From the NCBI GenBank assembly GCA_002748835.1, contig PDTL01000014.1:23838-87837 (forward strand): a stretch of 64,000 nt of DNA. The letters run 5' to 3'. This stretch comes from Deltaproteobacteria bacterium. GTDB taxonomy: Bacteria; Desulfobacterota; Desulfobacteria; Desulfobacterales; GCA-2748835. Position numbers and translations under genes: made by a program. Within the stretch, counting starts at the first letter, position 1; each line of letters begins with the position of its first letter. The notes beneath the pieces were generated by a model. It was not told the origin of the DNA. It saw only the letters and a list, made by a program, of their open reading frames with translations, and searched no databases. Shown here one piece after another: positions 11,966 to 37,195 of the stretch.

Positions 11966-12035
11966 GCATCTTCAGAATCTGTTTTGTCAGACCTGTGGGT
12001 TTTGCTGACGGTTTGATGCAGGATGGAACCTTTAG

Positions 12036-12416: not shown

Positions 12417-12458
12417 TTCATTGATTCATTTTTACAACGATCTTATGGAGTTGTCGGC

Positions 12459-13328: not shown

Positions 13329-13344
13329 GTGCAAGGAGACAGAC

Positions 13345-14775: not shown

Positions 14776-14822
14776 ACGGGGTGACACGTTAAGGTAAGAC
14801 AGATTGCAGGCAGGTTTGTCAG

Positions 14823-16886: not shown

Positions 16887-16986
16887 TATGCCGGTTTGAA
16901 CAACCAGCCCGTCCTGCGGTACTGGTGTCGAGCGGAGGGCACTGTCTTTTTTTTTACGATCTTATTGCCCGTAAGATCAGGGAGCG

Positions 16987-18210: not shown

Positions 18211-19241
18211 TGGCCGTTGGGCGGTTGTCCGTTCTGGGTCTGCTGATCGGACTGCTGGCGTCTGATACGGCGGCCGGGTTCACCTGGCTGGGATATGAAA
18301 AAAACGCTGATTTCACTGCACCGGAATGTGTCCGGATTGATTACCGGATGCGCATCCGGGTTGAGGATGATGCTGATGCCGCGGCCCTTCGCCGGATGCC
18401 GCTTCCGCAAACGACGGGATACCGGAAAATCCTGGGGGCATTCGCACGGATTGATACCCGGCACACAGCGGACAGCGCAACGGTTGCAGACGGCTGCATT
18501 TGTATGACAACCGTCCGGCCCGGAGATGGGGTGGTTTACGGCTATACCCTTGTTCATGACGGCATTGGAAACGCGGGTGGTGCCGCAGACCGGCTGGTGA
18601 TTCCAGATCCCTCAGCCCCCTGCCGGGTGGTGTATACGGTGCAGTTCCCGTCCAGCGGTTTGTATCGATGGATCGAAGGCTCTGGCTGCAGCGCTGTGCA
18701 TACGGCGTCCGGAGATTGTTTCAGGTATGTGCGTGATGGGGGCGTTTGCCATCTTCCCGATCAGATTCGGGTGAGCTCCTGGGCATCCTGGGCCTGTGTG
18801 CGTAGGCAGTACGACGCCGCCTGGCCGGCAGACCCTCAGGGACTGATGGATCCTGCGGACCTGACCGGTGGTTCCCCTCCGGATCCGGAACGGCTCGCCT
18901 CCCAGCTTGCTGAACAGGTCGTCTATGAAATGGAACCGCGTGCCGGTCATCTGCATCAGCCGTCGAAACCGGCATCGGTGATGTCCCGGGGCCGGGGTGA
19001 CTGCAAGGATCTGGCCCTGCTGGTGGTGACGCTTTTAAGAAAATACGGCTTTAAGGCCGGATGTGTGCTGGCCGGAAACGACGGGTGCAGCACATTTCCA
19101 GACCCGCTGGTCTTCACCCATGCCTATGCGGCGGTGAAAACCGAAGGCGGTAAGTGCCTGTACCTGGATCCGGCCCGGAAATTGACATCGGTGGTGCCGG
19201 CAGAAGATTGGCTCCTGCCGCTTTCCCTGTGTGAGTATTGA
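18210..19241 (+). CDS. exported transglutaminase-like (Cys-His-Asp) domain protein
   Basis: The ATG at 18210 overlaps the tadB-like stop (TGATG) and is an internal Met of track ORF 18129. Signal-like N-terminus LSVLGLLIGLLASDTAAG. TGase-core pattern GRGDCKDLALLVVTLLRKYGFKA...FTHAYAAV...LYLDPA. Confidence 0.75.
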   Translation: MAVGRLSVLGLLIGLLASDTAAGFTWLGYEKNADFTAPECVRIDYRMRIRVEDDADAAALRRMPLPQTTGYRKILGAFARIDTRHTADSATVADGCICMTTVRPGDGVVYGYTLVHDGIGNAGGAADRLVIPDPSAPCRVVYTVQFPSSGLYRWIEGSGCSAVHTASGDCFRYVRDGGVCHLPDQIRVSSWASWACVRRQYDAAWPADPQGLMDPADLTGGSPPDPERLASQLAEQVVYEMEPRAGHLHQPSKPASVMSRGRGDCKDLALLVVTLLRKYGFKAGCVLAGNDGCSTFPDPLVFTHAYAAVKTEGGKCLYLDPARKLTSVVPAEDWLLPLSLCEY

Positions 19242-19273
19242 CCTTTGCTTACAGTTTATAGAGGAGTTACGCC

Positions 19274-22200: not shown

Positions 22201-22918
22201 TAACGGTCTGAATGCGGGGAAGACCCTGTATGATGCGTACATGATGGTGACGGGACTTCCTGCGAAGCTTGCTGATTACTACACGTATGTGATCTCCCCC
22301 GCCGGATCCTTGCTCATGAATGGCGTCAAAAAATTGGCCTCCCTGGACCCGATGACCCTGCTGAAATACGGGCTGTTTTTAGGTCCGGGCTGGTCACCGC
22401 TTACGAACGGGACACCCCTGAATTGGTCCATGACCCCGCAGGATGCCCTGGATGCCTTGGGCCGGGCGATCGGATGGGCATACACGTCGGGTGATGCTGC
22501 TGTCAAATGGATTGCCGACCTGGTGATGGTCCATGAAGCACTGGCCTTAAATCCCATGTCGCCTGCAGCTCAGTCCTATCTGGAAAGCCTGATCGCGGCG
22601 TTTATCTCCCGATCCACGCTGGATACACTGAGCGGACTTCCGGATACGGTGTTCAGCGGCCTTTCTGCCGCAGATGATTATATCGACCTGTTGAGCCGAT
22701 ATGGGGAATTTATGCTAGCGGCGCCCTGGGCGATTGCCGATGATTACGCTGGAGGGGATGTTGTCCATTCAGAGACGGGCACGCGCCTGACCGGTGGTTC
22801 GGCAACCGATACCGGGACCGCCGCGAAGACAGCGACGCCTCCGAAACATCGCGCACCCACGACCTACAGGAAACCTGTACCCGTTAAACCGGGTAAGATG
22901 CGAAAACTGCCGTGGTAA
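19274..22918 (+). CDS. large (1214 aa) secreted/membrane-associated protein of unknown function
   Basis: Signal peptide LHLVILAFFLFQTLMPVPAMAAKK. The first ~700 aa are Leu/Ala/Glu/Arg-rich and look helical. A Gly/Ala-rich hydrophobic hairpin VGYGLGGAACVVTGGLACIPLAVSAGAAGL spans about 21765-21860. The C-terminal tail is basic and Pro/Lys-rich. I see no catalytic motif. Confidence 0.7.
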   Translation: MKTPKWLHLVILAFFLFQTLMPVPAMAAKKSTEKIVPIPGGYAVDSADFMDGIASLDRDLIRSYLAYMGKSATIRAGMRKRSEEFSELLKAGAPLVRVQIADPTYASLANEAERSLAYVTDALSRTEQDHNKKTESLEKTVRAGFSGSRLPDGLLGKTRLLEDLYRQQDTLVQMKLNMAAKLTGIYDNIRVNGKVFPQPEAVKTWLAAVDGLMIALEAQTLVLKQETEAFEAEKRTYNEAALAALSLERERTLALKAENDRQIDYLTSVGTPYTRDQAALLSGVQDVLDYRLNEIEARERAVEQDVSGTGNFLYLPESLDAVAAIRPLVNRYRNIASGWIELTGARIGDADHLIRALDDAIAAMTDESSQLSAWLSTASGVYSPEGTAALKQGLETRYDGFLNILIANRDALKKARNDLSSISFSDPDALTRDAAATARIVRFNQLVEAAIGGLDGISVTSFVMDVRTTADLESLATAIGPGSLESVFNASEQRARAISQVADLLEALETGLTADRDQSALLRMLALDLVSEGKRIYQQKSRAVSRALTHAPSGSGKVYRSFLEGTQLHLSGRYEELKAYDAAIPAGFSSRLTEAACPLCLDTRVWNDTAQIGTLFQERFEELAKLEQLDPLLSAAYLTETDPYRVAEHLFALSLAVDSPPLMTLKEDSIDVTFVIGDKATAILNVGKTNSVSASRLIPETDPWIQGPYIGWSFNPKTAWGSEKKRVADTGAMIISARKGFANTASEILEGAKVIGGKITTRLSEYRKKAGEVIEKTGAGLVKAKNALWDTTQKAAAVSWDVIKNIGTQAFLDEHVDAHGNKTYSVGWMKLVGYGLGGAACVVTGGLACIPLAVSAGAAGLKGVFDTMAMKKYNIISENTQWYLNTAVDIADLIGSGILNIKSAGKAWQGMSKMHKALVFLGLDPDNVKHLGELFSVKAYKGLKTIWKYVAEGRFSAIRSVLEKFRIPVKMAERFLNGLNAGKTLYDAYMMVTGLPAKLADYYTYVISPAGSLLMNGVKKLASLDPMTLLKYGLFLGPGWSPLTNGTPLNWSMTPQDALDALGRAIGWAYTSGDAAVKWIADLVMVHEALALNPMSPAAQSYLESLIAAFISRSTLDTLSGLPDTVFSGLSAADDYIDLLSRYGEFMLAAPWAIADDYAGGDVVHSETGTRLTGGSATDTGTAAKTATPPKHRAPTTYRKPVPVKPGKMRKLPW

Positions 22919-22941
22919 ACACCACAGGAAAGGAGCCACAA

Positions 22942-23466
22942 ATGACGGCAAAAAAAACGATGGTTCTGCTTTTGGGGATGCTGGTGTTGAACGCCTGCGT
23001 CCAGAATCGGCCCCGCCCGGCAGCAACGCAACCGCCAGCAAAAACAGGCGGAGAAACGGTTGCCATTAACCTGGATCATGCCTCGCTTCGTACGGAAATC
23101 ATAGGGGCAAACGGGTATGCCCTCGCACTTTTTTACAACAATCAGTACCGGCCCTCTGCTGAGCTCGAGGCGATTTTTGACGCGCTTTCAGTCAAATACA
23201 AAGACGCTGCCGTGTACGGAAAATTTTTCTGGTATCTGGATTGGAACGGGGAACAGTACGGACTGGACATGCTACCCACGGTCATTCTCTTTAACAATGG
23301 AGAAGAGATCGATCGGATCCGGGGAATGGACACGGACAAGAACCGGATCCAAAAGGACATGGATCTCTGGCTGAGGAAAAATGTCGTGAATCCGCAAGGG
23401 GACGGGTTCTCGGGTGCGTTCACCTATCGGTTCAACAATACCTATACCCTGTCGATTTCAAACTGA
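22942..23466 (+). CDS. thioredoxin-fold lipoprotein lacking the CxxC motif
   Basis: ATG at 22942 after AGGAGCC. Lipobox LVLNAC. The Trx-like layout is ALALFYNNQYRPSAELEAIFDAL...LPTVILFNNGEEIDRIRG, with NNQY where WCGPC would sit. Confidence 0.55.
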   Translation: MTAKKTMVLLLGMLVLNACVQNRPRPAATQPPAKTGGETVAINLDHASLRTEIIGANGYALALFYNNQYRPSAELEAIFDALSVKYKDAAVYGKFFWYLDWNGEQYGLDMLPTVILFNNGEEIDRIRGMDTDKNRIQKDMDLWLRKNVVNPQGDGFSGAFTYRFNNTYTLSISN

Positions 23467-23482
23467 TACAAGGACCTGGTGC

Positions 23483-25189
23483 ATGGCAACAGCCCGCGAC
23501 ATACTGAACGCTGACATCCGGCGAATTGCCGGAATGAACGGTATTGATCCCCTGCCGGAAGCCGGCAGCATCGAGGGGCTGTTGTCCGACCACCTGATCG
23601 AATCCGGGCGTGCAGCGGCAGATGCCGTGAATGTCATGCTGGAAGAGGCCACCGGCGTGCCGGCACTGGATCCGTCCCGCGTGTCGTTTTCCGATGCGTT
23701 CATCTCTCTGGCAACGGCCCTGATCCCGCGGGATTTGCTGGTGGCTCTTGGGGTTTTCCCGGTGCGGCTGAATAAACACCGGCTTCATCTGGTCATGGCG
23801 GTTCCCGGTGATTCAGAGGCGATACACCGGATTGAGGCGTGGACCGGTTCTCTCGTGGTCCCGTATGTCTGTCATTCACGGGGAATCATCAGTGCCATTG
23901 AGCGGATTCTGCCGGCAGCCGATGCAGTAGGAGAGATACCTGATGATCTGGACGCGCTGACCCTGGCGGCTGCCGGAACCGTTTCCGCAAAGGTGTCGGA
24001 CCAGGTGGAGACGCTGCGGGTGCTCACGGATGTGCCGCTGATCCGATTGGTGCAGGGGCTGTTAGCGGCTGCCGTTGAACGGGGTGCCAGTGATATCCAT
24101 ATTGAACCGGGACGGGAAGGGTGCCGTATCCGGATCCGGAAAGACGGTGTCCTTAACCGGTTCCATACCACGCCTGCCGTTTTGCGGGAGCCCATCATGA
24201 ACCGCCTGAAGCTGATGGCGGATATGGATGTGACAGACCGGCGAACGCCCCAGGACGGGAGTATTTCCTTTGGTGTGATTCCCGGCCGGGAGATCGACCT
24301 GAGGGTCTCTTCCCTGCCCACGGTGAACGGCGAAAAAGTGGTGCTCCGGATTCTGGACCGCGCGGATGTTGGGTTTGACCTGGAAGCTCTCGGCATGGAA
24401 GTTCCAGATCTGAAACGACTGAACCGCTCGATCTCTCAGCCCAGCGGCCTGGTCCTGGTGACAGGACCTACGGGCAGCGGGAAAACCACCACCTTGTATG
24501 CGATCCTGAATCATTTGAATCAAACGTCTGTGAATATCGTAACTGCGGAAGACCCTGTGGAATACCGCCTGGAGGGGGTTACCCAGGTGAACTGTTCCGA
24601 GGAAAGCGGGGTTTCCTTTGCCGATGCCCTGCGGTCGTTTCTCCGGCAGGATCCGGATATTATCATGGTGGGCGAAATCCGGGATCTGGAAACCGCCGAG
24701 TTTGCTGTCAAGGCCGCCATGACCGGCCATCTTGTTTTTTCGACCCTTCACACCATGGATGCGGTGGGAGCGGTTCAGCGCCTGGTCAATATGGGGGTAC
24801 CGCCGTACCTGATCGTCTCTGCCAAAGTTACGGTGGTGGCCCAACGGCTCCTTCGCCGGATCTGCGAAAACTGCCGGGTTGTGGATGAAGGCAGGGCAGA
24901 GGCGCTGAGCGTTCTTTCCATTGACAATCCAGCGTCGCTTTCCCTGTTTCGGGGCAGTGGATGCGATGACTGCAACGGAACCGGATACAGCGGGCGGCTC
25001 GGCGTCTATGAACTGTTTGCGGTGTCTGAAGCGGTGTCTGAATTGATTTTAAAGGATGCATCATCCGAAGCCTTGCGGAAAGTGGCGAAATCCGAAGGGA
25101 TGATTACCCTTCGGGAAGCCGCGCTTTTGAAACTCAAAGACGGCCGTACGACACTGGATGAAGTGCTACGGGTGACCATGGACATGTAG
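23483..25189 (+). CDS. GspE/PilB-family secretion ATPase with N-terminal T2SSE_N-like domain and tetracysteine motif
   Basis: ATG at 23483, an internal Met of track ORF 23414. Walker A VTGPTGSGKTTTLYA, Asp box TAEDPVEY, Walker B DPDIIMVGEIRD and His box TGHLVFSTLHT. Cys4 cluster CENC...CDDCNGTGYSGR. Confidence 0.9.
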   Translation: MATARDILNADIRRIAGMNGIDPLPEAGSIEGLLSDHLIESGRAAADAVNVMLEEATGVPALDPSRVSFSDAFISLATALIPRDLLVALGVFPVRLNKHRLHLVMAVPGDSEAIHRIEAWTGSLVVPYVCHSRGIISAIERILPAADAVGEIPDDLDALTLAAAGTVSAKVSDQVETLRVLTDVPLIRLVQGLLAAAVERGASDIHIEPGREGCRIRIRKDGVLNRFHTTPAVLREPIMNRLKLMADMDVTDRRTPQDGSISFGVIPGREIDLRVSSLPTVNGEKVVLRILDRADVGFDLEALGMEVPDLKRLNRSISQPSGLVLVTGPTGSGKTTTLYAILNHLNQTSVNIVTAEDPVEYRLEGVTQVNCSEESGVSFADALRSFLRQDPDIIMVGEIRDLETAEFAVKAAMTGHLVFSTLHTMDAVGAVQRLVNMGVPPYLIVSAKVTVVAQRLLRRICENCRVVDEGRAEALSVLSIDNPASLSLFRGSGCDDCNGTGYSGRLGVYELFAVSEAVSELILKDASSEALRKVAKSEGMITLREAALLKLKDGRTTLDEVLRVTMDM

Positions 25190-25208: not shown

Positions 25209-26087
25209 GTGGAAAATCTCATTGTCTTTGGCGGCGTGGCAGCGTTTGCACTGGCTGTGGCCGTATGCGTCTATCATCTGTTTCCGTCCGGAACCGATGA
25301 GGCCATTCGCGGCCACATGGAGGGACCGGGGACTTCTGCAGGCGAGACGGCGCAGTTTGTGGCAAAGTTCCGTCTGTTTATCGAGTTGCTGAATCCGGTG
25401 GTCTCCATTCTGCCGATACAGGGATACCGAAAACGGATTCAAAAATACGCCATTTCTGCGGGCGTGGAACGGGAATTGAGCGCAGAAGATTTTATCGGTC
25501 TGCAGCTCACCATTACCCTGCTCCTTCCCTTGCTTCTGTACACAGCCTTTAAGAATCCCCTGTATTCCAGCATCGGGGCTGCTGTGGGCCTGATTTTTCC
25601 TTATTACTGGCTTTGGGACAAGATGAATACCCGCCAGAAAGCCATTCGTTCGACGATCCCCGACATTCTCGATACCCTGTCCCTTGCCGTGGCAGCCGGG
25701 CTTGATTTCAATGCCGCTATCCGGAAAATCTGCGACATTTATGCGGATGACGGCAACCCCTTTACCGAAGAGCTGCACCTGATGCTGCAGAACATTACCC
25801 TAGGACGCTCCCGGGAAGAGGCGCTCCGGGAAATGGCTGCTCGAATTGATATGACACCGGTCTACTCGTTTGTCTCCATTCTGATTCAGGCGGAAAAAAT
25901 GGGGAGCAGTATTGCCGATACCCTGAAGTCCCAGGCAGAGCGCTACCGTGAAGATCGGTTTCTGGAGGCGGAACGGGCCGGGGCGGTGGCAGCCCAGAAA
26001 CTTTTGGTGCCCATGATTATTTTTATTTTTCCCTTGCTGTTTGTTGTTATTTTTGGGCCGTATGTACTTCAGTTTATTTATAAGTAA
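25209..26087 (+). CDS. tadC: TadC-like platform protein (single T2SS-F domain)
   Basis: GTG start. T2SSF pattern DILDTLSLAVAAGLDFNAAIRKI...ALREMAARIDMTPVYSFVSILIQAEKMGSSIADTL. It has a C-terminal TM pair. Confidence 0.85.
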   Translation: MENLIVFGGVAAFALAVAVCVYHLFPSGTDEAIRGHMEGPGTSAGETAQFVAKFRLFIELLNPVVSILPIQGYRKRIQKYAISAGVERELSAEDFIGLQLTITLLLPLLLYTAFKNPLYSSIGAAVGLIFPYYWLWDKMNTRQKAIRSTIPDILDTLSLAVAAGLDFNAAIRKICDIYADDGNPFTEELHLMLQNITLGRSREEALREMAARIDMTPVYSFVSILIQAEKMGSSIADTLKSQAERYREDRFLEAERAGAVAAQKLLVPMIIFIFPLLFVVIFGPYVLQFIYK

Positions 26088-26122: not shown

Positions 26123-27511
26123 ATGCACTGGATACTTGAAATTACAGATGAAAATCAACCGGCCCAGGTGATGGAACTGGCCCCGGGTGAGTACCGCATC
26201 GGCCGGGCAACGGTGTCTGAGGTGCATCTGGATGACCGGTCCGTGTCCAAACTCCATGCAACTCTGCATGTTTCAACGGACGGCGTGCTCACGGTTCGGG
26301 ATGAGAAAAGCGCCAACGGCACCCGGGTGGATGGCAAACCGGTGATTGAAAAGCGACTTGCCGGCAGGGCGGAAATTCAGATCGCCGGATTCCGGTTGAT
26401 GCTGTCGCCGCCGGATATCGTTCTTGGAAAACCGAAAAAAGGCTTCCTGCCTGATGCACGGATGATCTTTATTGCGGTGATGGTGCTGTTTCTGTCTGTG
26501 GTCATACTGACGTCTCACCTGCAGATGAAAGGGACGCTCAAGGCGTTTCGCGAAAAAGGCTCGCTCTCCCACGGCGCCACGCTGGTGACCTGGCTGGGAG
26601 AAATGAACCGGTATTTTTTGTCCGGGAAGCATCATGACCAGCTGACCCTGGATCCGGTGGCATCGGAAACCGGTGTGTTGCAGGCCTTTATCGTGGGTAG
26701 TACCGGCCGAATCCTGAAACCCCTGGAGTATTTCGGCAATTATCTGGAGATGGCGGATCTCGACGCCATCCTGACATCGGGTACCCTGACCATTCGATCT
26801 CAGGGGCCAGATGAGACGCTGATGATCTATCCCATTATCGGTCCATCATATCCCTATGGCGCGGCGGTTATCCGTTTCCGGACCTCGGACTGGGGACGGG
26901 ATCTGCCGGCTCCGGGCAGTGGACAGTTGATGCTGTTTCTGATTTCAGGAGGGCTGATCAGTCTGGTGACGGGTCTCTGGCTGTATCGCCAATTGTTGTC
27001 TCCTGTGCGGCTGCTGACTGCAGATCTGGACCGCGCACTTACGGAAAACGACACCCGGCTCCAGACACCACCGCCCACAGACGACCATCTACCCCTCTGG
27101 GAAGCGGTCAGCCGTCTTCTGGTCAGAGTGGCCTATCAGAAAAAAACGGAATCCGCGATCCCTGCAGGTTCACACCGTCCAGCCGCGCCCCCACTATCTG
27201 CGCCTGAATGCCGTTTATCGACCCATCCCTACCCGGCCTGCCGTGTGGCAACAGACAGTTACCTAATCAAGGCGTGGAATCCGGCCTTTAAAGAACGATT
27301 TTCATCTGAAAAAGAACTGACAGCCGACACCCACCTTATTGAGGTGATTCAACACCCGGAGCTGGTCAATATGGCATTTGATCTGCTCCAGTCAGAAAAT
27401 CCAAAACCCGCAATCGCCGGCACCTGCAAGCTGAGCCTGTATCCGTCGGCAGATGATTCCGGCACGTCAGTGGTGCTCTCGTTTCAGGAGATAGAAGATG
27501 CAAACAGGTAA
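26123..27511 (+). CDS. FHA-domain membrane protein (FHA - TM - extracytoplasmic region - TM - C-terminal domain)
   Basis: FHA core YRIGRATVSEVHLDDRSVSKLHATL...RDEKSANGTRVDG. TM segments MIFIAVMVLFLSVVILT and LMLFLISGGLISLVTGLWLY. The 3' end overlaps the next gene by 14 nt. Confidence 0.8.
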   Translation: MHWILEITDENQPAQVMELAPGEYRIGRATVSEVHLDDRSVSKLHATLHVSTDGVLTVRDEKSANGTRVDGKPVIEKRLAGRAEIQIAGFRLMLSPPDIVLGKPKKGFLPDARMIFIAVMVLFLSVVILTSHLQMKGTLKAFREKGSLSHGATLVTWLGEMNRYFLSGKHHDQLTLDPVASETGVLQAFIVGSTGRILKPLEYFGNYLEMADLDAILTSGTLTIRSQGPDETLMIYPIIGPSYPYGAAVIRFRTSDWGRDLPAPGSGQLMLFLISGGLISLVTGLWLYRQLLSPVRLLTADLDRALTENDTRLQTPPPTDDHLPLWEAVSRLLVRVAYQKKTESAIPAGSHRPAAPPLSAPECRLSTHPYPACRVATDSYLIKAWNPAFKERFSSEKELTADTHLIEVIQHPELVNMAFDLLQSENPKPAIAGTCKLSLYPSADDSGTSVVLSFQEIEDANR

Positions 27512-28400
27512 TTCCGCCGCAGGCAAACATGCTTCAGTGGCGCTGGTGATGACCGCCGGTAGCGCCAAAGGGCGTTCCTTTGCGCTGAATGAAGGTGGGG
27601 TGTACCGGATTGGCCGGTCACCGGAATCTGAAATCGCCCTGGATCCCCAGGATAAAAGTGTGTCCCGGCTGCATGCGCGTGTGCAGGTGAAATCCGGGAG
27701 GATTTTGTTTGCAAACGCCAGCCAGACCAACCCGGCTGTGGTGAACGGCAAGCTTGCGCTGAAAACGCTGGAACTGAGAAACGGCGATACCCTTCGCATT
27801 GGCGCTTCCGTTTTTCAGCTTCACACCGCTCGCACGGCAGGAGGGCCAGATAAAAAAACAATAAAGACAGGTGAGGAAAAACGACCGGTGCTGCTCTACG
27901 CAGTGGCGGGCGTGGTTGTGCTGATTGCGGTGCTGGCCGGTGTCAAACGATTTATATCTGATCGTGGCGGCGGGAGTGGAGATGACACACTGACTATCAG
28001 CAGCAACGCGTCGGATCCGCTGCTTGAAGGTGACGGGCTTCCCATGGCTTCCCTTTCGAATGCGCCGGGAAAGGGCGGCAATACACAGGCGGATTCGCTG
28101 TTTCACCAGGGGCTTTTTTTCTATGACGCCGGAAAACTCAAAAATGCCATTGACCGTTTTGAGGCGGCGCTGAAGGCGCAGCCTGATCACACCCTTTCCG
28201 AGCAGTGGCTGATGAAGACAGAATCGGAGCTGGCTGCCAGTGTGGATGTGCATTATCAGAAAGCCCTGCAGCACATGAAGTATATGCGTTACGGTGAAGC
28301 TGTCACCGAGTTTACCATCGTGGTTCAGCTGTCCCAGGATCCGGCAGATGAAAAATTTATGAACGCAAAAGAACAGCTGCTCAAGTTGAAAGGAAAGTAG
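27498..28400 (+). CDS. FHA-domain membrane protein with C-terminal TPR-like region
   Basis: FHA core YRIGRSPESEIALDPQDKSVSRLHARV...ASQTNPAVVNG. TM VLLYAVAGVVVLIAVLAGV. TPR-like segment ADSLFHQGLFFYDAGKLKNAIDRFEAALKAQPDH. Confidence 0.8.
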   Translation: MQTGNSAAGKHASVALVMTAGSAKGRSFALNEGGVYRIGRSPESEIALDPQDKSVSRLHARVQVKSGRILFANASQTNPAVVNGKLALKTLELRNGDTLRIGASVFQLHTARTAGGPDKKTIKTGEEKRPVLLYAVAGVVVLIAVLAGVKRFISDRGGGSGDDTLTISSNASDPLLEGDGLPMASLSNAPGKGGNTQADSLFHQGLFFYDAGKLKNAIDRFEAALKAQPDHTLSEQWLMKTESELAASVDVHYQKALQHMKYMRYGEAVTEFTIVVQLSQDPADEKFMNAKEQLLKLKGK

Positions 28401-28404
28401 AGAG

Positions 28405-29901
28405 TTGATCACGCTTTCAATATCGTTTGCAGATGGCAGTCAGGAAACACGGGAAGCGCTGCCGGAAAACACGGTGATGATCGGTCGGGCCGATGACTGT
28501 GATGTTCAGCTGGCCGGAGGCCGGGTGTCTCGGAATCATGCCCGGATTTACAACGAAGACGGTCGATGGATGGTTGAGGATCTCAAATCGACGAACGGGC
28601 TTTCCGTCAATGATATTCAATCGACCCGATATGCACTCAATAACGGGGACGTGATCCGCATCGCGGAGAACCGGATCCGGGTGACCCTGCCTGTGGAAAC
28701 CGGCGGCGCAGAAGATAGCGGTGTTGATCCGGATGCCACCTGTATTGAACCGGTCATGGGAGACCCGGAACCGGATGCCACCTTTGTGGTGAGCCGTGAG
28801 GCGATGATGGGGTCTGTTACCGGAAAGGGCGCTGCCACAGGCAACGTGGCCGCCTTTGTTCGGGAAAAACCGATTCTGGCACTGGTTGGCGCATTGCTTT
28901 TGGTGATCCTTATCAGCATAGTCGTGTTGCTCAGCGGAAATGAAAACCCTGCACCGGAGACACCCAAATTGGCAGTTGTGCCTGAGGATGCGGACACCGC
29001 CAAGGCTGCGTTGGAGCAGAAACGAAAAATCGGGGCCTATCTTCAGCGAGGGGAAATGCTGCTTGCTGCCGGTGAAGTGGAAAATGCCCTGATCCGGTTT
29101 GACGCCATCCTGGAGCTGGATCCGGGACATCGGGCGGCAGCGACACTTGCCGCCCGGTGCCGGCGTGAGATCGATGCAAGAGACGCAGCGCGCAGGCAGG
29201 CGGAAGAAAAGGCGTCCCTGGCAGCGGAAAAGCTGAATAAGGGTCTGGAACTGGCCCGGTATTATCACAGTCACCGGGAATGGGATCAGTGCATTGCCAT
29301 GCTCGATTCCTTGGCTGGCCAGATTGCAGAAGGGTCTGCTGAGGCCAAAGAAGTGTCGGCCTTGCGCCAGACCGCATCTGATGCGCTGAAAAAGGCAGCC
29401 GCTGCCCGGAAAAAACAATCTGAAGTGACGGGCGCCATCCAGCGCCAGGTGAACAAAGGATCCGGTTACTATAAAAAACGGAACTATTACAAGGCGCTTC
29501 TTGCCTGGCGTAAAGGGGTGAAGATTTCTCCGAACCATCCCCTTGCGCTTGAAATAAAAGATCAGATGATTCCAAAAGCCGTTTCGGCCCTGAATCAACG
29601 GGTGGCTGGTGATTACCAGCGGGCGGTTCAGTATAAGAACCGCGGGGATGACGGAGAAGCTCTGATCTATTTTGACCGTGTGGTCAATCGGTGGCCTGAA
29701 TACAAGGATGCGGCACGTCAGCGCAACGCAATCGAAAAATGGCTGGAAGATGAGGCGAAGCGTCTGTACCAGGAAGGGAAAGTTTACGAAGGCATCGGAC
29801 AGATGGACAAAGCAATTCGCAAATGGGAGGCTGTGCTGGAAAAGATGCCGCTGAAATCGAATGCCTATTATAAAAAAGCCGCTGCCAAGCTGGGGCGCTA
29901 A
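28405..29901 (+). CDS. FHA-domain membrane protein with extended TPR region
   Basis: TTG start. FHA core MIGRADDCDVQLAGGRVSRNHARI...DLKSTNGLSVND. TM ILALVGALLLVILISIVVLL. Several TPR-like repeats extend to the C-terminus. Confidence 0.8.
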   Translation: MITLSISFADGSQETREALPENTVMIGRADDCDVQLAGGRVSRNHARIYNEDGRWMVEDLKSTNGLSVNDIQSTRYALNNGDVIRIAENRIRVTLPVETGGAEDSGVDPDATCIEPVMGDPEPDATFVVSREAMMGSVTGKGAATGNVAAFVREKPILALVGALLLVILISIVVLLSGNENPAPETPKLAVVPEDADTAKAALEQKRKIGAYLQRGEMLLAAGEVENALIRFDAILELDPGHRAAATLAARCRREIDARDAARRQAEEKASLAAEKLNKGLELARYYHSHREWDQCIAMLDSLAGQIAEGSAEAKEVSALRQTASDALKKAAAARKKQSEVTGAIQRQVNKGSGYYKKRNYYKALLAWRKGVKISPNHPLALEIKDQMIPKAVSALNQRVAGDYQRAVQYKNRGDDGEALIYFDRVVNRWPEYKDAARQRNAIEKWLEDEAKRLYQEGKVYEGIGQMDKAIRKWEAVLEKMPLKSNAYYKKAAAKLGR

Positions 29902-29908
29902 CGATGGG

Positions 29909-31663
29909 ATGTCAGGGGGGCAGATGACAACCGATACCGTGTCCGTATTATCCAATCTTATCGGTGACAAATATCATGTGGGAGAGGTGATCGCCCGGGG
30001 CGGGATGGGCGAAGTTTACACCGGCACCCATGTGGCGTTGAACCGGAAGGTGGCCATCAAGATTATCCGTACCCATCTTTCCTCAGACGCCCAGATCCGG
30101 GAGCGGTTTCTCCGGGAAGCCCGGCTCACGGCCCAGCTGACCCATCCGAATATCATCGAAATCTTTGATTTTGGCGGCAATGAGGCCTTTGACTACATCA
30201 TCATGCCCTATATTGACGGGATCACCCTGAAAGATCGTCTGACTGGAACCGGACCCGTGCCGGCGGACGAAACCCTGAAACTGGTCCGGCCCGTGGTCGA
30301 TGCCCTGGCCCTGGCCCATGACAGGGGGGTGGTGCATCGGGACGTGAAACCGAGCAATATCCTGGTAACCTCAGGCGGGATTCCCATTCTGACGGATTTT
30401 GGCATCTCAAAGAATCTGAACGATTCTGACATGACCCTGTCGGACACCATGCTGGGCGCTCCCCGATATATGAGCCCCGAACAGATTCGCGGCGAGCGGG
30501 TGGACGGGCGCAGTGATCTTTATGCCATCGGGATCATTCTGTATGAAATGCTTTGCGGATCTCATCCGTTCAAGGGGGATCAGGTGGCTGCCATCTGCTA
30601 TCAGCAGATGCATGAGGTGCCGTCGCCTCCGGATACGGTGAACCCCGCGATACCGGAGTGGTTATCCGGACTTGTCATGCAGCTGGTGGAAAAAAAACCG
30701 GAAGACCGGTTTCTGGATGCCCATGCACTGCTCAAGGCCATGGATGCAAAAGGCGATGTCGCAGCGATCCGTTCTCTCGGGTCAGCGCAAGACATCATGG
30801 CCGGTGACAGGACGATCGTGGGGGACGCAACCCGTGTCGGAGATGCGACGGTGGTCGGCCCTGAACCGGCAGCCGTTTCCCTGAGCGATGCCACACAGAT
30901 TGGTGAAGCGACCGAAATCGGTGGTCCGGTTGTCCATGCGTCGGCAGGCATACCGGCGGCCGGACCCAACCGGAAACGCTGGTATGCCATTGCCGGTGCC
31001 GTGATGGGACTGCTAATCATCATCGGTATCGCCGGAAAGCTGCTCAGGTCTCCTGATGCAGAAAAATCTGTGGAAACGCCCATAAAAGCTGAAGCACCGG
31101 TATCATCCGAGGTCGACACAGGCGGTGTGGTATCGCCTGGCTCCGAAGATCGTGCGGAATTGGAACCGCTGACTGAACCGGTGACCCGGAAAGATCTGAT
31201 TCAGGCCATTCAACAGCTGCCTGTGACAGGCGCACAGGCCAGCGGCATTCATATCGACTTGAGCCAGCCATCCTTCCGGGTGGGCGACCCCATTGCCTAC
31301 CGCCTGAAATTTGACAGGCCCGGTTACGGGGCCGCAGTGCTCCTGACGACGTCCGGGGAGCTCATCTGTCTGTACCCGAGCGGCAGCCAGTCAGGCGCTT
31401 TGGTGGAACCCGACCGTGTGTACCCGGTTCCCCATACATCCCTGGGCATTGATCTTGAAGTGGTGGGGCCGGAAGGCAAAGAACGGGTTGTTGCGTTTCA
31501 CAGCACTGTGCCGGTGATCGAACCGGCTGTGAGTGCGGACGCTCCCTTTACAGAGATCACGGATGCAACCCCGAAGCTGGTCAAGGCCTTGCATGATGCA
31601 GTGAAGAAATCCGGGACTGGCATGAGCATTGCGGTCACAGACTATTTTGTCTTTACCCCCTGA
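29909..31663 (+). CDS. Hanks-type Ser/Thr protein kinase with TM and DUF4384-like ectodomain
   Basis: Kinase motifs GRGGMGEVY, VAIK, HRDVKPSNIL, DFGISK and APRYMSPEQ. TM WYAIAGAVMGLLIIIGIAG. The C-terminus FRVGDPIAYRLKFDRPGYGAAVLLTTSGELICLYPS...GKERVVAFHS resembles DUF4384. The start is ATG 29909 or 29924; the track start at 29861 overlaps the upstream gene. Confidence 0.9.
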   Translation: MSGGQMTTDTVSVLSNLIGDKYHVGEVIARGGMGEVYTGTHVALNRKVAIKIIRTHLSSDAQIRERFLREARLTAQLTHPNIIEIFDFGGNEAFDYIIMPYIDGITLKDRLTGTGPVPADETLKLVRPVVDALALAHDRGVVHRDVKPSNILVTSGGIPILTDFGISKNLNDSDMTLSDTMLGAPRYMSPEQIRGERVDGRSDLYAIGIILYEMLCGSHPFKGDQVAAICYQQMHEVPSPPDTVNPAIPEWLSGLVMQLVEKKPEDRFLDAHALLKAMDAKGDVAAIRSLGSAQDIMAGDRTIVGDATRVGDATVVGPEPAAVSLSDATQIGEATEIGGPVVHASAGIPAAGPNRKRWYAIAGAVMGLLIIIGIAGKLLRSPDAEKSVETPIKAEAPVSSEVDTGGVVSPGSEDRAELEPLTEPVTRKDLIQAIQQLPVTGAQASGIHIDLSQPSFRVGDPIAYRLKFDRPGYGAAVLLTTSGELICLYPSGSQSGALVEPDRVYPVPHTSLGIDLEVVGPEGKERVVAFHSTVPVIEPAVSADAPFTEITDATPKLVKALHDAVKKSGTGMSIAVTDYFVFTP

Positions 31664-31738: not shown

Positions 31739-33820
31739 ATGAAAATACATGTCAAACCATGGATGTATGCGGCCCTTGCTGCCATCTGTACGGTCATCGT
31801 GGGGGCGGGCGCGGCGGCAGCTGATGAAAACGTCCTGATTTTGGTCAACCCCCAGGCCGGATCCGGCAGCGGGGTGAGCGTCCAGGTGGTGAACGGGGCT
31901 GATGGCGGCGTGGATACCATGGCCATTGAAAACGAACTGGCCCGGGGTCTGATGGAGAACGGGTATACGGCGACACTGGGCAGCGAGCTCATGTCCGGCC
32001 GGGATCTGAGTGAGAAGGAAGTCGAAAAGGCACGCACCGGGAACATGCAGCTGCTTAAAAAAGCTGCGGCCCTTCACGATGCCGGCGTATTTTGCGTGGC
32101 GAAGGTTTCTTCCCGCATGTCCACGGAATCGGTTCTGGGTATGGAGATGACACGGGCAGACCTTACGCTCTCCTACCGGATCTACGACACCATCACTGGA
32201 AAAAATATTGCCCGGAATGTACTGAAATTTTCAAACGCCGACCGGTCTCCGGGTGCGACCTTGAATGCCCTATATGCGAAGATGGCAGACGGATTTGCCG
32301 CAGATGTGGCTGGAAAAGTGGCTAAGGATGTTTCTTCCAGCCGCCGGAAAGCCATGGCAAAAGCCAAAAAATCGTACAGGAAAAAAGTGGTGGTAGCGGC
32401 AAAACCCAAGTCAAGACCCAAACCCGCGGCTGCGCCGTCACCGGCCATAACGGAAAACCTGAAAATTGTCATTGTGAATCCCCCCCTGGGGCGCGGCTTT
32501 ACGATTAAGGAAAAAAGGAAGACCATCTCCCTTGAAGGGATGGTCGTGGATCCCAGCGGTGCCGGCGTGTCCCATGTCATGGTCAACAACACTGCCGCCA
32601 ATCTCGCTTCAGACGGGCGCTTTACCTACCCGCTGACCCTGAGTGCCGGCGCTAATACCATCGATATTCTGGCCGTGAACCGGCAGGGAAAAACCGCGCG
32701 CAAACAGATCACCCTGAACAGGGCGTTAGACACCCTGCCACCGGTGATCCGAATCACTCAGCCGGTGATTACCCGTGGGTTTAAAACCGTTGTTAAACCC
32801 AAGGCCTCTTATTTGAAAGTCAGCGGCACGGTGACCGACGACAGTGAAATTCTTTTTGTGAAAATCAATGGGTCACCTGTGGTTCTGGGTTCTGGAGGCG
32901 CATTTTCCACCAATCTGCCGCTGGATTCTGCAGCGCGCTCGGAAATCAGGGTGGCGTCGTCAGATGTGCACGGGAATGTGAGCCATAAAGAGATTCCCAT
33001 CACTCGGGGTGTGGCAGCTACATCCTCACCCGCACCCGCTTACCCGTCCGCTGCCGGATTCCGGCCGGTGCTCTGGGGACTTTCGGTGGGGGTGTCTGAT
33101 TATAAATCCGGAATGATTGATCTCGAATATGCGGATGATGACGCCAAGCTGATTGCGGATTTTTTCAGTCGCAAAGGAAAAGGGATTTTTCACAAGGTCC
33201 AGTTTAAGACTCTGCTGAATACCGATGTTACCCGGGACAGCATCATTGATGCCATGACCACCCACCTGGGAAAAGCCGGACCCGATGATGTGGTGATGAT
33301 TTTTGTGGCCGGCCACGGGATCAAGCACCGGCAAACCGGTTCTTATTATTTTGTGCCGTCAGACGCGGACGGTGACTCCCTCATCTCCAGAGGGCTGCGC
33401 ATGTCCGATTTTGAGGAGTCGATCAAAATTCTCTCCCAGAACGTGAACAAGGTGATCGTTGCCATGGATACCTGCCACTCGGGTGCCATGCAGATCGGCC
33501 TCCGGGGTGCGGAATCCGAAAGCCTTGCCGAGAAGCTGAAAGCCGCATCCGGCCTCTATATTCTCGCAGCATCAAAGAGCGGTGAAAGCTCCATGGAAGG
33601 AAAAGACTTTCGGATTGACGGAGACAAGGGGCACGGCGTATTCACGTATGCCCTGATCAACGGTATGCGCGGTGCTGCGAATTTTGACCAGGATACCTAT
33701 GTCTCTTTGAACGAGGTTTTTCATTATGTGGCAAAAGAAGTACCGGTGCTGACCAACGGACGGCAGCACCCGTATCAGAAAGTGGATGGGAATGATCTCC
33801 CCCTGGTGCGTTTGAAATAG
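31739..33820 (+). CDS. exported caspase-like (peptidase C14) protein with N-terminal LpoB/CsgG-like module and Ig-like middle region
   Basis: ATG at 31739, 8 nt after AGGGAGA. Signal peptide WMYAALAAICTVIVGAGAAAA. C14 pattern LSVGVSDYKS...YADDDAKLIADFF...VMIFVAGHGI (His) ...VIVAMDTCHSGAM (Cys). Confidence 0.85.
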   Translation: MKIHVKPWMYAALAAICTVIVGAGAAAADENVLILVNPQAGSGSGVSVQVVNGADGGVDTMAIENELARGLMENGYTATLGSELMSGRDLSEKEVEKARTGNMQLLKKAAALHDAGVFCVAKVSSRMSTESVLGMEMTRADLTLSYRIYDTITGKNIARNVLKFSNADRSPGATLNALYAKMADGFAADVAGKVAKDVSSSRRKAMAKAKKSYRKKVVVAAKPKSRPKPAAAPSPAITENLKIVIVNPPLGRGFTIKEKRKTISLEGMVVDPSGAGVSHVMVNNTAANLASDGRFTYPLTLSAGANTIDILAVNRQGKTARKQITLNRALDTLPPVIRITQPVITRGFKTVVKPKASYLKVSGTVTDDSEILFVKINGSPVVLGSGGAFSTNLPLDSAARSEIRVASSDVHGNVSHKEIPITRGVAATSSPAPAYPSAAGFRPVLWGLSVGVSDYKSGMIDLEYADDDAKLIADFFSRKGKGIFHKVQFKTLLNTDVTRDSIIDAMTTHLGKAGPDDVVMIFVAGHGIKHRQTGSYYFVPSDADGDSLISRGLRMSDFEESIKILSQNVNKVIVAMDTCHSGAMQIGLRGAESESLAEKLKAASGLYILAASKSGESSMEGKDFRIDGDKGHGVFTYALINGMRGAANFDQDTYVSLNEVFHYVAKEVPVLTNGRQHPYQKVDGNDLPLVRLK

Positions 33821-33870: not shown

Positions 33871-34584
33871 ATGCGCCTTGAGAAAAAAGAAGAAAGACTA
33901 AAACAGCGTCTCAGCTGGATGCTGTTGTTCCTTATTTTCGTGCTGACCACAGGATGCGTTGCCAGCAGTCAGCCGTCAGCACCGCCGCTGCCGCCGGCCA
34001 ATGATACGCAGGTGAATATGCGGGATCTTCCCTATCCGAACGGAAAACGGGCGCTTGTTGCCATTGCCGGTTTTGAGAACAAGAGTACCTATTCTGCTGA
34101 CCGACTCTGGGATACATCGTCCCGGCTTCTCGCCTCCGCATTGATACAGGCCAACTATTTCCGGGTGGTGGAATGGGAAAAAATGAAGCAGCTCTTTGAC
34201 TGGGACACACTCTCCAACGCCAGCCTTGTGAAATCGCCGGACGATCTGAAACGGGCTCAGCGGATTCTTTTGTGTGAATATTTTGTCACCGGCACCATCA
34301 CGTTCTTCAATATCAAGCAGCATGCCCAGGTGAGCGCCATGTCCAAATCCAAAGTACTGGATACCACGGTCCGTGTCGATTTGCTGCTGCAGGACGCACG
34401 CACCGGAGAATATCTGAGCGCATCCAACGGTGAGCACACGGTGCGCCAGTCGTACACAGCAGGCATGTCCGGCGGTCAGACCGGCAGCTGGGACAGCCAC
34501 TCCGGTGATGAAGCCCTGTCACAGGCCATTAACAAAGCCCTGTATAACCTGGTGTTGAATTTTCATTCCAGGCGACGTGGATAA
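33871..34584 (+). CDS. CsgG-family lipoprotein
   Basis: ATG at 33871 after AAGGAG. Lipobox VLTTGC. CsgG-like core VAIAGFENKSTYSADRLWDTSSRLLASALIQANYFRVVEWEKM...YFVTGTITFFN...VRVDLLLQDARTGEY. Confidence 0.75.
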   Translation: MRLEKKEERLKQRLSWMLLFLIFVLTTGCVASSQPSAPPLPPANDTQVNMRDLPYPNGKRALVAIAGFENKSTYSADRLWDTSSRLLASALIQANYFRVVEWEKMKQLFDWDTLSNASLVKSPDDLKRAQRILLCEYFVTGTITFFNIKQHAQVSAMSKSKVLDTTVRVDLLLQDARTGEYLSASNGEHTVRQSYTAGMSGGQTGSWDSHSGDEALSQAINKALYNLVLNFHSRRRG

Positions 34585-34990: not shown

Positions 34991-37195
34991 ATGTTTTCTA
35001 ACGACCTGTATGCGTCAATGGACCATTCCCTGATGCCTGAGGGAAGTCTCGGCAGGGAAGCCTGCGATTATCTGCTGGACACGGTTCAGCGCTCCATTCT
35101 ATTCTGGGATGTGATCCGCCAGCGCGGCACCAATTATATCGCGCACATCAACGATGATCAGCCGCCGGTGTTGGTGTTTGATTATGACACGATTCTCGAT
35201 GCCAGGGAATTTGACCGGCCGACCAATTATTCGCTGGTGAAAATCAAGAACCGGCGACTATCGCAGGCGGCTGGGGATAAACAAGGGGATGCGGACGACT
35301 TGCAGGAAACGGAATCTCCCTACAAGCGTCCCCTTGTTATTATCGACCCGCGTGCCGGACACGGCCCGGGAATCGGCGGCTCTAAGGAACTGTCTGAAAT
35401 CGGTATGGCCCTGAACCAAGGCCATCCGGTCTATTTTGTGATGTTTTTTACGTATCCCATGCCGGGTCAGACCCTGGCTGACGTTAAAAATGCTGAAATC
35501 CGTTTCCTGGAAGAGGTCCGCAGACGGCATCCCAAGGCAGCGAAACCGGTGGTCATCGGTAACTGTCAGGGCGGCTGGGCGTCTGCGATTTTGAGTGCGG
35601 ACCGGCCGGATTTGGTTGGTCCCCTGGTGCTGAACGGAGCGCCGCTTTCCTACTGGTCTGGCGTGGACGGGAAAAATCCCATGCGGTATAAAGGCGGGCT
35701 CCTGGGGGGGGTCTGGCTCAACTCCCTGATGAGTGACATGTCAAACGGCATGTTTGACGGTGCTAACCTGGTATGGAACATGGAAATGCTCAACCCCGCA
35801 AACACCTACTGGAAAAAAGAATACAATCTGTATGCGAAAGTCGATACGGAAAAAGACCGGTACCTGAATTTCGAACGGTGGTGGGGTGGTTTTTTCTGGA
35901 TGACCAAGGAGGAAATTCACCGGATCGTGGATGGCCTGTTTATCGGGAACCAGTTGGTGCGGGGCACCTTTGAGATGGCGGATGGTTCCCGCATTGATCT
36001 GAAAAATATTGAGGGGCCGGTGGTGGTTTTTGCCTCTGAAGGCGATAATATCACGCCCCCCCAGCAGGCGTTGAACTGGATTCCCCAGGTATATGATTCG
36101 GTAGATGAAATTCGGCGGCAGAAGCAGGTGGTGGTCTATATCGTGCATCCCAAGATCGGCCATCTGGGGATTTTTGTCGCGTCGTCTATTGCCCAGAAAG
36201 AAACCAAAGAGATTATTGGCAGTGTGGAAATGCTGGAATACCTGTCCCCGGGTCTGTATGAACTGATCATTGATGAAGAACCGAATAAAAACGGGAACAA
36301 TGATTACAAGGTGCGTTTCGAGCCCCGTGAAATGGAAGATATTCTGGCCCTTGACGATGGGTTTGACGATGAAGAGCCCTTTGGCCATGTGCAGGCATTG
36401 AGCGAGCTCATGGACCGCTATTACAATGCCTATCTCAGCCCCTTTGTCCAGAGCTTGTCTTCTGAATATACACGGGAGATATTCCGGCTGCTGCACCCCC
36501 TGCGGGTCCAGCGCTACGGGTTTTCCGATCTGAACCCGGGAATGGTCGGCGTAAAGACGCTTGCCCCGTATGTTGTTGAAAACAGAAAAGAAGCACCTTC
36601 TACAAATATGTTTCGGAAAATGGAATCTGCGGTTGCTGAGAGTGTGGAAAACATGTGGAACCTGTACCGTGACCTGCGTGACATGGGGCAGGAGATCATG
36701 TTCCAGGGGATTTACCACAATCCCGTTGTACACCACCTGTTCCCGGATCCCGGTACCACACCGGAGCGAGAAGCGGAAAAAGCAAAAGCAAAGGCACAGC
36801 AGGCAATCTCACAGAAAGCAGACCGGGCTGCGTTGGTCGCTAAACTCGAATCCGGCGACTACGGAGAAGCGCTTATCCGAATGCTGCTTGCCGTCATTGG
36901 GGCAGATGGCTCCATTGATGAAAAAGAGATGAAGCATGCTGAAACGATTATCCGCGAGCGCCGGAGGCTTCAGAAAATGAAACCGTCGGAATTGAAGGCC
37001 ATTGTAGTGGAACAGTCGCGCATTCTGCAGACTGATTTTGATGGGGCTATCAAGGCGCTGCCCAAAATGATGTCACGAAAGGTGGACCGCAAGCGGGCGT
37101 TTGCCTTAGCTGAAAGCGTCTCTACGGCAGATGGCGAGCTCCATGAAAATGAGGCCAGGGTGCTCGATCAGATCAAGGCTGCACTGGCGCTTTAA
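34991..37195 (+). CDS. DUF3141-like alpha/beta hydrolase (PHA-synthase-like GxCxGG box) fused to TerB-like C-terminal domain
   Basis: 734 aa. GAGGAGAG RBS. Lipase-box-like VVIGNCQGGWA. The overall N-terminal pattern (YLLDTVQRSILFWDVIRQRGTNY...PPVLVFDY) is what I recall for DUF3141. The C-terminal ~130 aa (EALIRMLLAVIGADGSIDEKEM...STADGELHENEARVLDQI) are TerB-like. Confidence 0.65.
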   Translation: MFSNDLYASMDHSLMPEGSLGREACDYLLDTVQRSILFWDVIRQRGTNYIAHINDDQPPVLVFDYDTILDAREFDRPTNYSLVKIKNRRLSQAAGDKQGDADDLQETESPYKRPLVIIDPRAGHGPGIGGSKELSEIGMALNQGHPVYFVMFFTYPMPGQTLADVKNAEIRFLEEVRRRHPKAAKPVVIGNCQGGWASAILSADRPDLVGPLVLNGAPLSYWSGVDGKNPMRYKGGLLGGVWLNSLMSDMSNGMFDGANLVWNMEMLNPANTYWKKEYNLYAKVDTEKDRYLNFERWWGGFFWMTKEEIHRIVDGLFIGNQLVRGTFEMADGSRIDLKNIEGPVVVFASEGDNITPPQQALNWIPQVYDSVDEIRRQKQVVVYIVHPKIGHLGIFVASSIAQKETKEIIGSVEMLEYLSPGLYELIIDEEPNKNGNNDYKVRFEPREMEDILALDDGFDDEEPFGHVQALSELMDRYYNAYLSPFVQSLSSEYTREIFRLLHPLRVQRYGFSDLNPGMVGVKTLAPYVVENRKEAPSTNMFRKMESAVAESVENMWNLYRDLRDMGQEIMFQGIYHNPVVHHLFPDPGTTPEREAEKAKAKAQQAISQKADRAALVAKLESGDYGEALIRMLLAVIGADGSIDEKEMKHAETIIRERRRLQKMKPSELKAIVVEQSRILQTDFDGAIKALPKMMSRKVDRKRAFALAESVSTADGELHENEARVLDQIKAALAL

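Follow-up and report, generated by a model that had tools for sequence, protein, structure and literature searches.

In the present study, we analyzed a 64,000-nucleotide (nt) stretch of contig PDTL01000014.1 (assembly GCA_002748835.1, a metagenome-assembled genome labelled "Deltaproteobacteria bacterium"), hereafter called the window, and in particular three consecutive genes in it that encode membrane proteins with an N-terminal FHA domain (FHA1, FHA2, and FHA3). With moderate confidence, we regard this triplet as an integral inner-membrane phospho-switch module of a two-motor subclass of the Tad/Flp (type IVc) machines. This reading is built on the domains and membrane topology of the three proteins, the conservation of their phosphothreonine-contact residues, the conserved gene order around them, and a gene slot directly behind them in which a Ser/Thr kinase alternates with a PP2C phosphatase.

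Results

The genes for FHA1 (26123-27511, 462 amino acids [aa]), FHA2 (27498-28400, 300 aa), and FHA3 (28405-29901, 498 aa, TTG start) lie on the + strand, as do all features described below between positions 3144 and 34584 of the window. An initial annotation of this DNA had described three adjacent genes for FHA proteins with transmembrane (TM) segments, and they were recovered at these positions by a Pfam-A scan, which covered all open reading frames (ORFs) of the window of at least 150 aa, and by a hydropathy scan, from which TM segments were predicted. All three proteins passed the gathering cutoff of the FHA family (PF00498, 20.7 bits), with 46.3 bits (E 5.7e-12) for FHA1, 47.0 bits (E 3.4e-12) for FHA2, and 67.7 bits (E 1.2e-18) for FHA3. 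PF16697, the YscD cytoplasmic domain, scored nearly as high as FHA on the triplet proteins, and an NCBIfam search gave a weak match to GltG. The two TM segments with an intervening loop that had been proposed for FHA1 were located at residues 115-133 and 269-287. FHA2 and FHA3 have one TM segment each (residues 131-149 and 157-175, respectively), followed by a short periplasmic TPR-like tail in FHA2 and a periplasmic multi-TPR domain in FHA3. The TPR-like C-terminal regions suggested earlier for two of the proteins thus correspond to TPR_2 and TPR_14 matches above the threshold in FHA3 and to a single sub-threshold TPR_2 match in FHA2 (E 9e-5). The N-terminus of FHA3 agrees with those of its orthologs. 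The overlap of 14 nt between FHA1 and FHA2 and the gap of 4 nt between FHA2 and FHA3 are exactly as originally given, and a kinase gene follows FHA3 on the same strand after 22 nt. Since a promoter and terminator scan of the window yielded chance-level results, the assignment of these genes to an operon is based on gene spacing.

FHA domains had been cited in the initial annotation as phosphothreonine binders, and alignment showed that the binding residues are conserved. The G-R...S-x-x-H core of the phosphothreonine pocket is present in 37 of the 37 FHA domains from 12 loci. In the alignment of the FHA1 family, no variation was seen at G27, R28, S42, H45, D60, S63, or N65, among which are the residues of the canonical phosphothreonine pocket, and the motif S-x-N-G occurs in every FHA1 copy of the 12 loci. 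The corresponding loop of the window proteins reads SANG in FHA1, QTNP in FHA2, and STNG in FHA3. The loop Asn is found in 35 of the 37 domains, the exceptions being one FHA3 domain each in L089 and L092, and the loops of FHA2 and FHA3 vary modestly, with a Ser/Thr beside the Asn or an equivalent retained. We also considered whether loci without the kinase tend to have degenerate FHA pockets; we draw no such conclusion because the loops differ modestly, and FHA2 and FHA3 do so reciprocally. PrgH/YscD-type pseudo-FHA domains lack phosphate-contact residues. We rejected this identity for the triplet because these residues are conserved in all 37 domains and PAS-like or TPR regions make up the periplasmic parts. 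The FHA domains of the triplet are predicted to be true phosphothreonine readers; this prediction is a part of the whole reading given above and shares its moderate level of confidence.

The AlphaFold (AF2) model of FHA1 has a mean predicted local distance difference test (pLDDT) score of 88.4. In the model, the FHA domain and TM1 lead into a periplasmic alpha/beta domain of the PAS/Cache-like type; TM2 is followed by a HAMP-like hairpin, in which Pro294 is conserved, and then by a PAS-like domain in the cytoplasm. A PAS match was also detected by Pfam in the FHA1 ortholog of L092. The best match of the model in the PDB by Foldseek was a model of the sensor kinase WalK (9a5d_A, E 3.9e-10, 407 columns). 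The FHA domain of FHA1, the one FHA domain modelled, forms an 11-strand beta-sandwich and superposes on GarA, OdhI, FhaA, EmbR, and Bdellovibrio DgcB with root-mean-square deviations of 1.4-2.5 Å, and its PDB matches were mostly phosphothreonine-binding FHA domains. Residues 110-460 of FHA1 share with WalK-type sensor histidine kinases the layout of a TM segment, extracytoplasmic PAS, a second TM segment, HAMP, and cytoplasmic PAS. However, FHA1 lacks the DHp and catalytic domains, and the N-terminal FHA domain is its sole recognisable effector-type domain. According to the model, FHA1 combines an FHA domain with a WalK-like sensor module that lacks the kinase core.

Relatives of FHA1 were collected by an exhaustive HMMER search, which revealed a family of approximately 40 full-length representatives of 454-510 aa that align end to end with 21-27% identity. 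When FHA1, FHA3, or the FHA1-family alignment was used in word-indexed searches, no full-length relatives were retrieved, and the matches were almost solely FHA-only. Approximately 14 representatives (P0050, P0051, P0058, P0071, P0083, P0085, and others) match residues ~100-430 of FHA1 only; therefore, the TM-PAS-TM-HAMP-PAS module is also found in proteins that have no FHA domain or a different N-terminal region.

The loci of the relatives were obtained by contig look-ups and one metagenome scan with a sub-clade alignment (5 loci), whereas a genome-contig scan anchored on the second motor ATPase of the window returned generic PilB/GspE loci (38-51% identity), none of which had an FHA neighbour. 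The resulting set comprises 12 loci, namely, the window, L082, L084, L088, L089, L091, L092, L095, L097, L098, L099, and L100; L096 is identical to L095. In 12 of 12 loci, a T2SSF gene is immediately followed by FHA1, FHA2, and FHA3 in this order, and this second T2SSF gene is equally universal. The second PilB-like ATPase and the thioredoxin-like protein that precedes it were found in 11 of 12; L092, the most divergent locus, keeps the triplet and lacks the second ATPase. TadE/G, CpaB, the secretin, TadZ::CpaF, and the T2SSF-TPR protein are encoded in every locus that reaches far enough upstream, and the order of the core is shared by L088, L089, L092, L098, L099, and L100. The FHA2 orthologs of the 12 loci show 20-34% identity, and each has a single TM segment. 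Since the core proteins (the second ATPase and the second T2SSF protein) are only 41-73% identical between loci, the arrangement is old, and the recurrence of one gene order in 12 divergent loci indicates that it is not due to chance. The co-occurrence of the FHA module with tad-like genes, which would have been expected in relatives of the window, was thus observed in every relative found. Judging from this synteny, these loci encode a distinct subclass of Tad-like machine, and the FHA triplet belongs to its core.

The slot after FHA3 was readable in 11 loci, L082 being uninformative because its contig ends. It contains a kinase with a DUF4384 domain in 5 of the 11. In the window, L091, L095, and L097, this kinase is followed by a caspase and then a CsgG-like protein; in L099, the kinase is split into two ORFs and accompanied by CsgG, and the caspase part is missing, possibly because of an assembly problem. 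In all of these loci, the kinase gene adjoins FHA3 on the same strand with a gap of 20-98 nt. A neighbour-joining tree of the core proteins placed kinase-bearing loci on both sides of its deepest split, and the linkage spans the deepest branches, at 47-49% core identity. In L089, the slot is occupied by a PP2C gene (PF13672, 56.5 bits), which overlaps FHA3 by 4 nt and has no caspase or CsgG with it. The remaining 5 of 11 loci (L084, L088, L092, L098, and L100) have unrelated or opposite-strand genes in this position. Among the comparative data, the best argument for a triplet that acts through phosphothreonine is this translationally coupled slot, in which either a writer or an eraser can be found. 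The triplet can evidently also work without a cis-encoded kinase because 5 of 11 loci have neither a kinase nor a phosphatase.

Some further features were noted around these loci. FHA3 of L089 (12444-14186) has two tandem FHA domains, and the opposite strand of the same locus (15126-21434) carries a chemotaxis-like cluster with CheA, CheW, CheB, CheR, and a response regulator-SpoIIE fusion. In L084, a Tox-PAAR-like gene (10062-10454) is located close to the module, and an IS630-like transposase helix-turn-helix gene starts right after FHA3 in L098 (14095-14514).

The gene behind FHA3 in the window (29924-31663) encodes a 579-aa receptor-type Hanks Ser/Thr kinase that consists of a kinase domain, a juxtamembrane linker, a TM segment, and a periplasmic DUF4384 domain. 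Its ORF opens at 29861; the start at 29924 is favoured by the gene caller, a GGGGGG Shine-Dalgarno-like run, and the N-termini of the orthologs. The initial annotation had recognised a kinase with a TM segment and a DUF4384-like ectodomain, and this architecture was confirmed by Pfam (Pkinase E 1.1e-50; C-terminal DUF4384 E 1.1e-12) and by the single TM segment at residues 356-374, after which DUF4384 begins. Since the kinase has no signal peptide, DUF4384 is placed on the extracytoplasmic side. A single-sequence model of this ectodomain was unusable (pLDDT 36). The motifs GGMGEV, VAIK, HRDVKPSN, DFG, and SPE are conserved in four orthologs (34-37% identity), and the kinase and its orthologs carry Thr residues in the activation loop. 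The catalytic competence that the original proposal presupposed is supported by this motif check, in which every motif was retained, and the kinase is by its motifs catalytically intact. The earlier statement that the window contains no PP2C-type phosphatase also held, with no PP2C, PP2C_2, or SpoIIE match among the scanned ORFs.

The 85-residue linker of the kinase contains a repeat (30806-30922) of five [D/E]-x-T-x-[V/I]-G motifs, within which all five Thr residues of the linker are located. Shuffled sequences gave an expectation of 0.13 motifs against the 5 observed. Copies of DAT[I/L/M]VD are present in the linkers of L095 (3), L097 (3), and L099 (4). Mycobacterial PknB and its FHA partners are examples of juxtamembrane phosphothreonine docking. 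Juxtamembrane phosphosites activate PrkC, and sites of this type serve for activation and docking in Hanks kinases (bioRxiv 10.1101/2025.11.01.686061). For this reason, we propose the Thr repeats of the linker as candidate sites of autophosphorylation and multi-site FHA docking, the predicted phosphosites being Thr297, Thr303, Thr309, Thr324, and Thr330 of the 579-aa form.

The machine next to the triplet has a Tad-like core (10182-18210), in which Pfam detected a Flp pilin, TadE/G, CpaB/RcpC, the RcpA-type secretin, a TadA/CpaF ATPase fused to TadZ (TadZ::CpaF, 14823-16886), and a T2SSF protein with TPR (16987-18210). The CbiA/AAA_31 N-terminal part of the fusion corresponds to TadZ, and the Flp match is sub-threshold (25 bits against 32.2). 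Further downstream, a 184-aa lipoprotein with a lipobox (LNAC) and a weak thioredoxin fold without CxxC (22912-23466) precedes a second motor ATPase of the PilB/GspE type with an MshEN N-domain (23414-25189, likely start 23483), which is followed by a second, TadC-like T2SSF platform protein (25209-26087) directly upstream of FHA1. The second ATPase matched T2SSE with an E-value of 1.3e-126 as well as MshEN, and it scored 565 bits against the NCBIfam PilB model, which is below the equivalog cutoff. A regex search found no canonical cyclic diguanylate-binding motif of MshEN in it. Thus, each of these Tad/Flp components is present, with two T2SSF proteins; unlike a Tad/Flp system with its single bifunctional ATPase, this operon encodes a second ATPase of the PilB/GspE type. 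No A24 prepilin peptidase (TadV) or TadD-like pilotin was detected among the window ORFs of at least 150 aa, and no type VI secretion system (T6SS) Pfam family was found in any scanned ORF.

A variable slot (18129-22918) between the Tad-like core and the thioredoxin-fold lipoprotein encodes a transglutaminase-like protein (18129-19241) and a 1214-aa secreted protein with a signal peptide and no family match (19274-22918). Homologs of these genes are present in L082 only, and the other loci have 0-4 unrelated unknowns in this position. The L082 homolog of the 1214-aa protein (1238-6230) shares its N-terminal ~900 aa and adds a lipase-like GHSLG tail. The identification of the 1214-aa protein as a phospholipase is unsupported because this tail is specific to L082. 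The products of the variable slot may be cargo, tip, or effector proteins. Elsewhere in the window, a GAF-PAS sigma-54 activator (45351-47678, - strand) and a DUF3141-TerB protein (34991-37195) flank a block of beta-oxidation genes and are seemingly unrelated to the machine.

Three features had been overlooked in the initial annotation: the PilB/GspE nature of the ATPase adjoining the triplet and two genes downstream of the kinase. The first of these genes encodes a secreted orthocaspase (31739-33820) with a signal peptide, an N-terminal domain, two Ig-like Glucodextran_B domains, and Peptidase_C14 (PF00656, E 2e-16). Its His/Cys dyad is intact (DTCHSGA in the window), with AGHG and DTCH[S/A]GA kept in four orthologs of 42-44% identity, which also retain the signal peptide. 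In L091, L095, and L097, as in the window, the caspase gene directly follows the kinase. The second gene encodes a CsgG-like lipoprotein (33871-34584, lipobox LTTGC), and CsgG is conserved after the caspase or kinase in L091, L095, L097, and L099. An envelope set that includes a GNA1162-like lipoprotein, a 387-aa unknown, OEP, HlyD, and a MacB-type ABC protein (3144-9970; Pfam) lies upstream of the pilus genes in the window. The genes of this set are located directly after CsgG in L091 (19246-21419), L095 (18404-20246), and L099 (18691-21464). Because CsgG is downstream and the other genes are upstream, the envelope set flanks the machine on both sides in the window.

Discussion

Taking the triplet as a phospho-switch module, we infer how phosphotransfer, docking, and the direction of control may be connected. 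The cytoplasmic FHA domains would read phosphothreonine, and the periplasmic parts, the PAS-like sensor of FHA1 and the TPR arrays of FHA2 and FHA3, would reach into the envelope. The kinase would most likely autophosphorylate on the five [D/E]xTx[V/I]G linker threonines and perhaps also phosphorylate parts of the machine. The phosphorylated sites may then dock, gather, or switch the FHA proteins, by which the assembly or firing of the machine would be gated. A PP2C, for which L089 has a gene in cis and the genome of the window presumably one in trans, would reset the switch. The signal may enter through FHA1, by way of its PAS-like domain, through the DUF4384 ectodomain, or through both.

The initial annotation had proposed that the kinase senses an extracytoplasmic cue through DUF4384 and acts on the machine through FHA scaffolds. 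The tie to Thr phosphorylation has gained support from the PP2C in the slot of L089. However, the FHA proteins are not merely adaptors of the kinase because the triplet is present in 12 of 12 loci and the kinase, an accessory, in 5 of 11. The FHA proteins thus belong to the core of the machine, to which the kinase provides an accessory input. Moreover, DUF4384 need not be the only or main extracytoplasmic input since FHA1 has its own periplasmic PAS-like sensor. The pairing of the kinase with the envelope and caspase set suggests that it conveys a different input.

Several observations weigh against a phospho-switch. There is no kinase or phosphatase within 10 kb of the module in L084, L088, L092, L098, and L100. 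Where the kinase is present, it is linked to the caspase/CsgG/GNA1162 set as strongly as to the triplet. In the linker of L091, the Thr repeat is present only in a weak form, and the residue three positions after the putative phosphothreonine is Gly in the window and Asp in the orthologs. The sample is also small, with 12 loci, 11 of which are informative for the slot, and the relatives are all uncultured and known from metagenomes.

Some of these observations would be expected if the triplet were a structural scaffold, that is, a phospho-independent ring or connector of the inner membrane similar to PrgH/YscD of the type III secretion system or GltG of the gliding machine, and if the kinase belonged to the caspase/CsgG module. 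The universality of the triplet against the patchy occurrence of the kinase, the PF16697 scores close to those of FHA, and the weak GltG match are consistent with this explanation. The periplasmic TPR tails could stand in for the missing TadD, and MXAN_4649, an FHA protein of the Kil system described below, is listed as PrgH-like (PMC8460266). However, a scaffold does not account for phosphothreonine-contact residues in all 37 domains, which PrgH/YscD-type domains do not have, for the recurrence of a kinase or PP2C in the same translationally coupled slot, or for PDB matches dominated by phosphothreonine-binding FHA domains. We consequently regard it as doubtful. The same slot argues against the explanation that the kinase-DUF4384, caspase, CsgG, GNA1162, and OEP/HlyD/MacB genes form an independent lipoprotein, export, or cell-death system that is merely co-located or co-regulated with the machine and has its substrates elsewhere. 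The mobility of this block relative to the Tad core, which it flanks on both sides in the window and follows entirely in L091, L095, and L099, and its absence from half of the loci fit such a module. However, the linkage is maintained across the deepest branches, the kinase always adjoins FHA3 at a short distance on its strand, and the L089 PP2C stands in the slot alone, which together make independence very improbable.

Two other proposals extend the phospho-switch rather than replace it. The periplasmic orthocaspase may bind or cleave DUF4384 upon envelope contact or damage and thereby switch the kinase, which would in turn act on the FHA triplet. This is a speculative refinement of the input side. 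The kinase and caspase are adjacent in 4 of 4 intact kinase-bearing loci, with the signal peptide and dyad of the caspase kept, and DUF4384 domains are reported to be often fused to protease domains and to be one type of C-terminal domain in Csx30, which the caspase-like Csx29 has as its substrate (bioRxiv 10.1101/2022.08.17.504292); DUF4384 also occurs in orthocaspases (PMC7475262, PMC6426788). On the other hand, this evidence is one of association; no motif for cleavage was found, the model of DUF4384 was unusable, and the caspase part is missing in L099, even if an assembly problem may be responsible. Protease gating is, therefore, rather unlikely in our estimation. In its broadest form, the proposal would be that of a hitherto unrecognised, deeply conserved two-motor Tad-like class with three-FHA signalling in uncultured delta-type bacteria. 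One FHA protein would be a receptor resembling a sensor kinase, with a phosphothreonine reader as its sole output, and in one lineage an orthocaspase would act on the DUF4384 kinase, the kinase on a multi-phosphothreonine array, and the array on the gathering of FHA proteins and firing, a pathway that could represent the missing contact-sensing cascade proposed for predatory systems of the Kil type. We give this complete chain a similarly low probability.

The Kil system of Myxococcus xanthus is a Tad-like apparatus for contact-dependent killing in which FHA proteins are over-represented (PMC8460266). KilD and MXAN_4648 (both FHA and TPR) and MXAN_4649 (FHA) are encoded beside the platform protein KilH (PMC8460266, supplementary file 1), and KilD clusters ahead of Kil pilus polymerisation (PMC12075869). 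An upstream signalling cascade was proposed for Kil, and no kinase, phosphatase, or sensor is known to be linked to its FHA proteins. For the question of what triggers Tad-like machines such as Kil where and when they are needed, the family described here provides an explicit and conserved wiring diagram, with three FHA readers in the operon, a writer or eraser in the next slot, a candidate docking array, and a sensor-type FHA protein, and it turns the vague "signalling cascade" of Kil into specific testable questions of binding, phosphorylation, and mutation. It also defines a two-ATPase variant of Tad and gives DUF4384 and the secreted orthocaspase a concrete functional context.

The window and Kil share a Tad-like core and multiple accessory FHA proteins, including FHA proteins with TPR. 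However, comparisons of domain layouts and descriptions indicate that Kil has a single ATPase, KilF, with an N-terminal FHA domain, two gene clusters, no reported kinase or phosphatase, and a KilD annotated as cytoplasmic, whereas the window has TadZ::CpaF, with TadZ rather than FHA at the N-terminus, and a second PilB-like ATPase. By these two ATPase features, the window falls outside the Kil family. Moreover, the FHA proteins of the window are all membrane-anchored, one of them is WalK-like, and the family encodes a kinase or PP2C in cis. The Tad system of Bdellovibrio bacteriovorus resembles the window in its atypical TadZ-TadA fusion ATPase, in the presence of FHA, TPR, and PAS genes near tad, and in tad loci without a prepilin peptidase, which borrow PilD (bioRxiv 10.64898/2026.07.08.737194). 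According to its description, it differs in that the genes are distributed over several loci, its localisation is controlled by RomR, and no FHA triplet, second PilB-like motor, or link to a Hanks kinase is described.

In the T6SS, threonine phosphorylation through PpkA-PppA-Fha1 and through binding of Fha to phosphorylated TssL gates assembly (PMC3953482; cited in PMC8460266). The receptor Hanks kinase with a periplasmic domain, the FHA reader, the PP2C eraser, and the envelope-spanning machine are common to both pathways. However, the window lacks T6SS genes and has no PP2C in cis within its 64 kb, its FHA proteins are three and membrane-anchored as opposed to one soluble Fha, and its kinase ectodomain is DUF4384 instead of vWA. 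By analogy, the system of the window would work like the T6SS phosphorylation pathway, but it is not a member of it. In a literature search, we encountered no report of a Hanks kinase or PP2C connected to a Tad-type machine. Compared with these known systems, the new features are the two motors, the ordered and entirely membrane-anchored triplet with a sensor-type FHA protein, the kinase or PP2C in cis, and the caspase/CsgG/GNA1162 set that accompanies the kinase.

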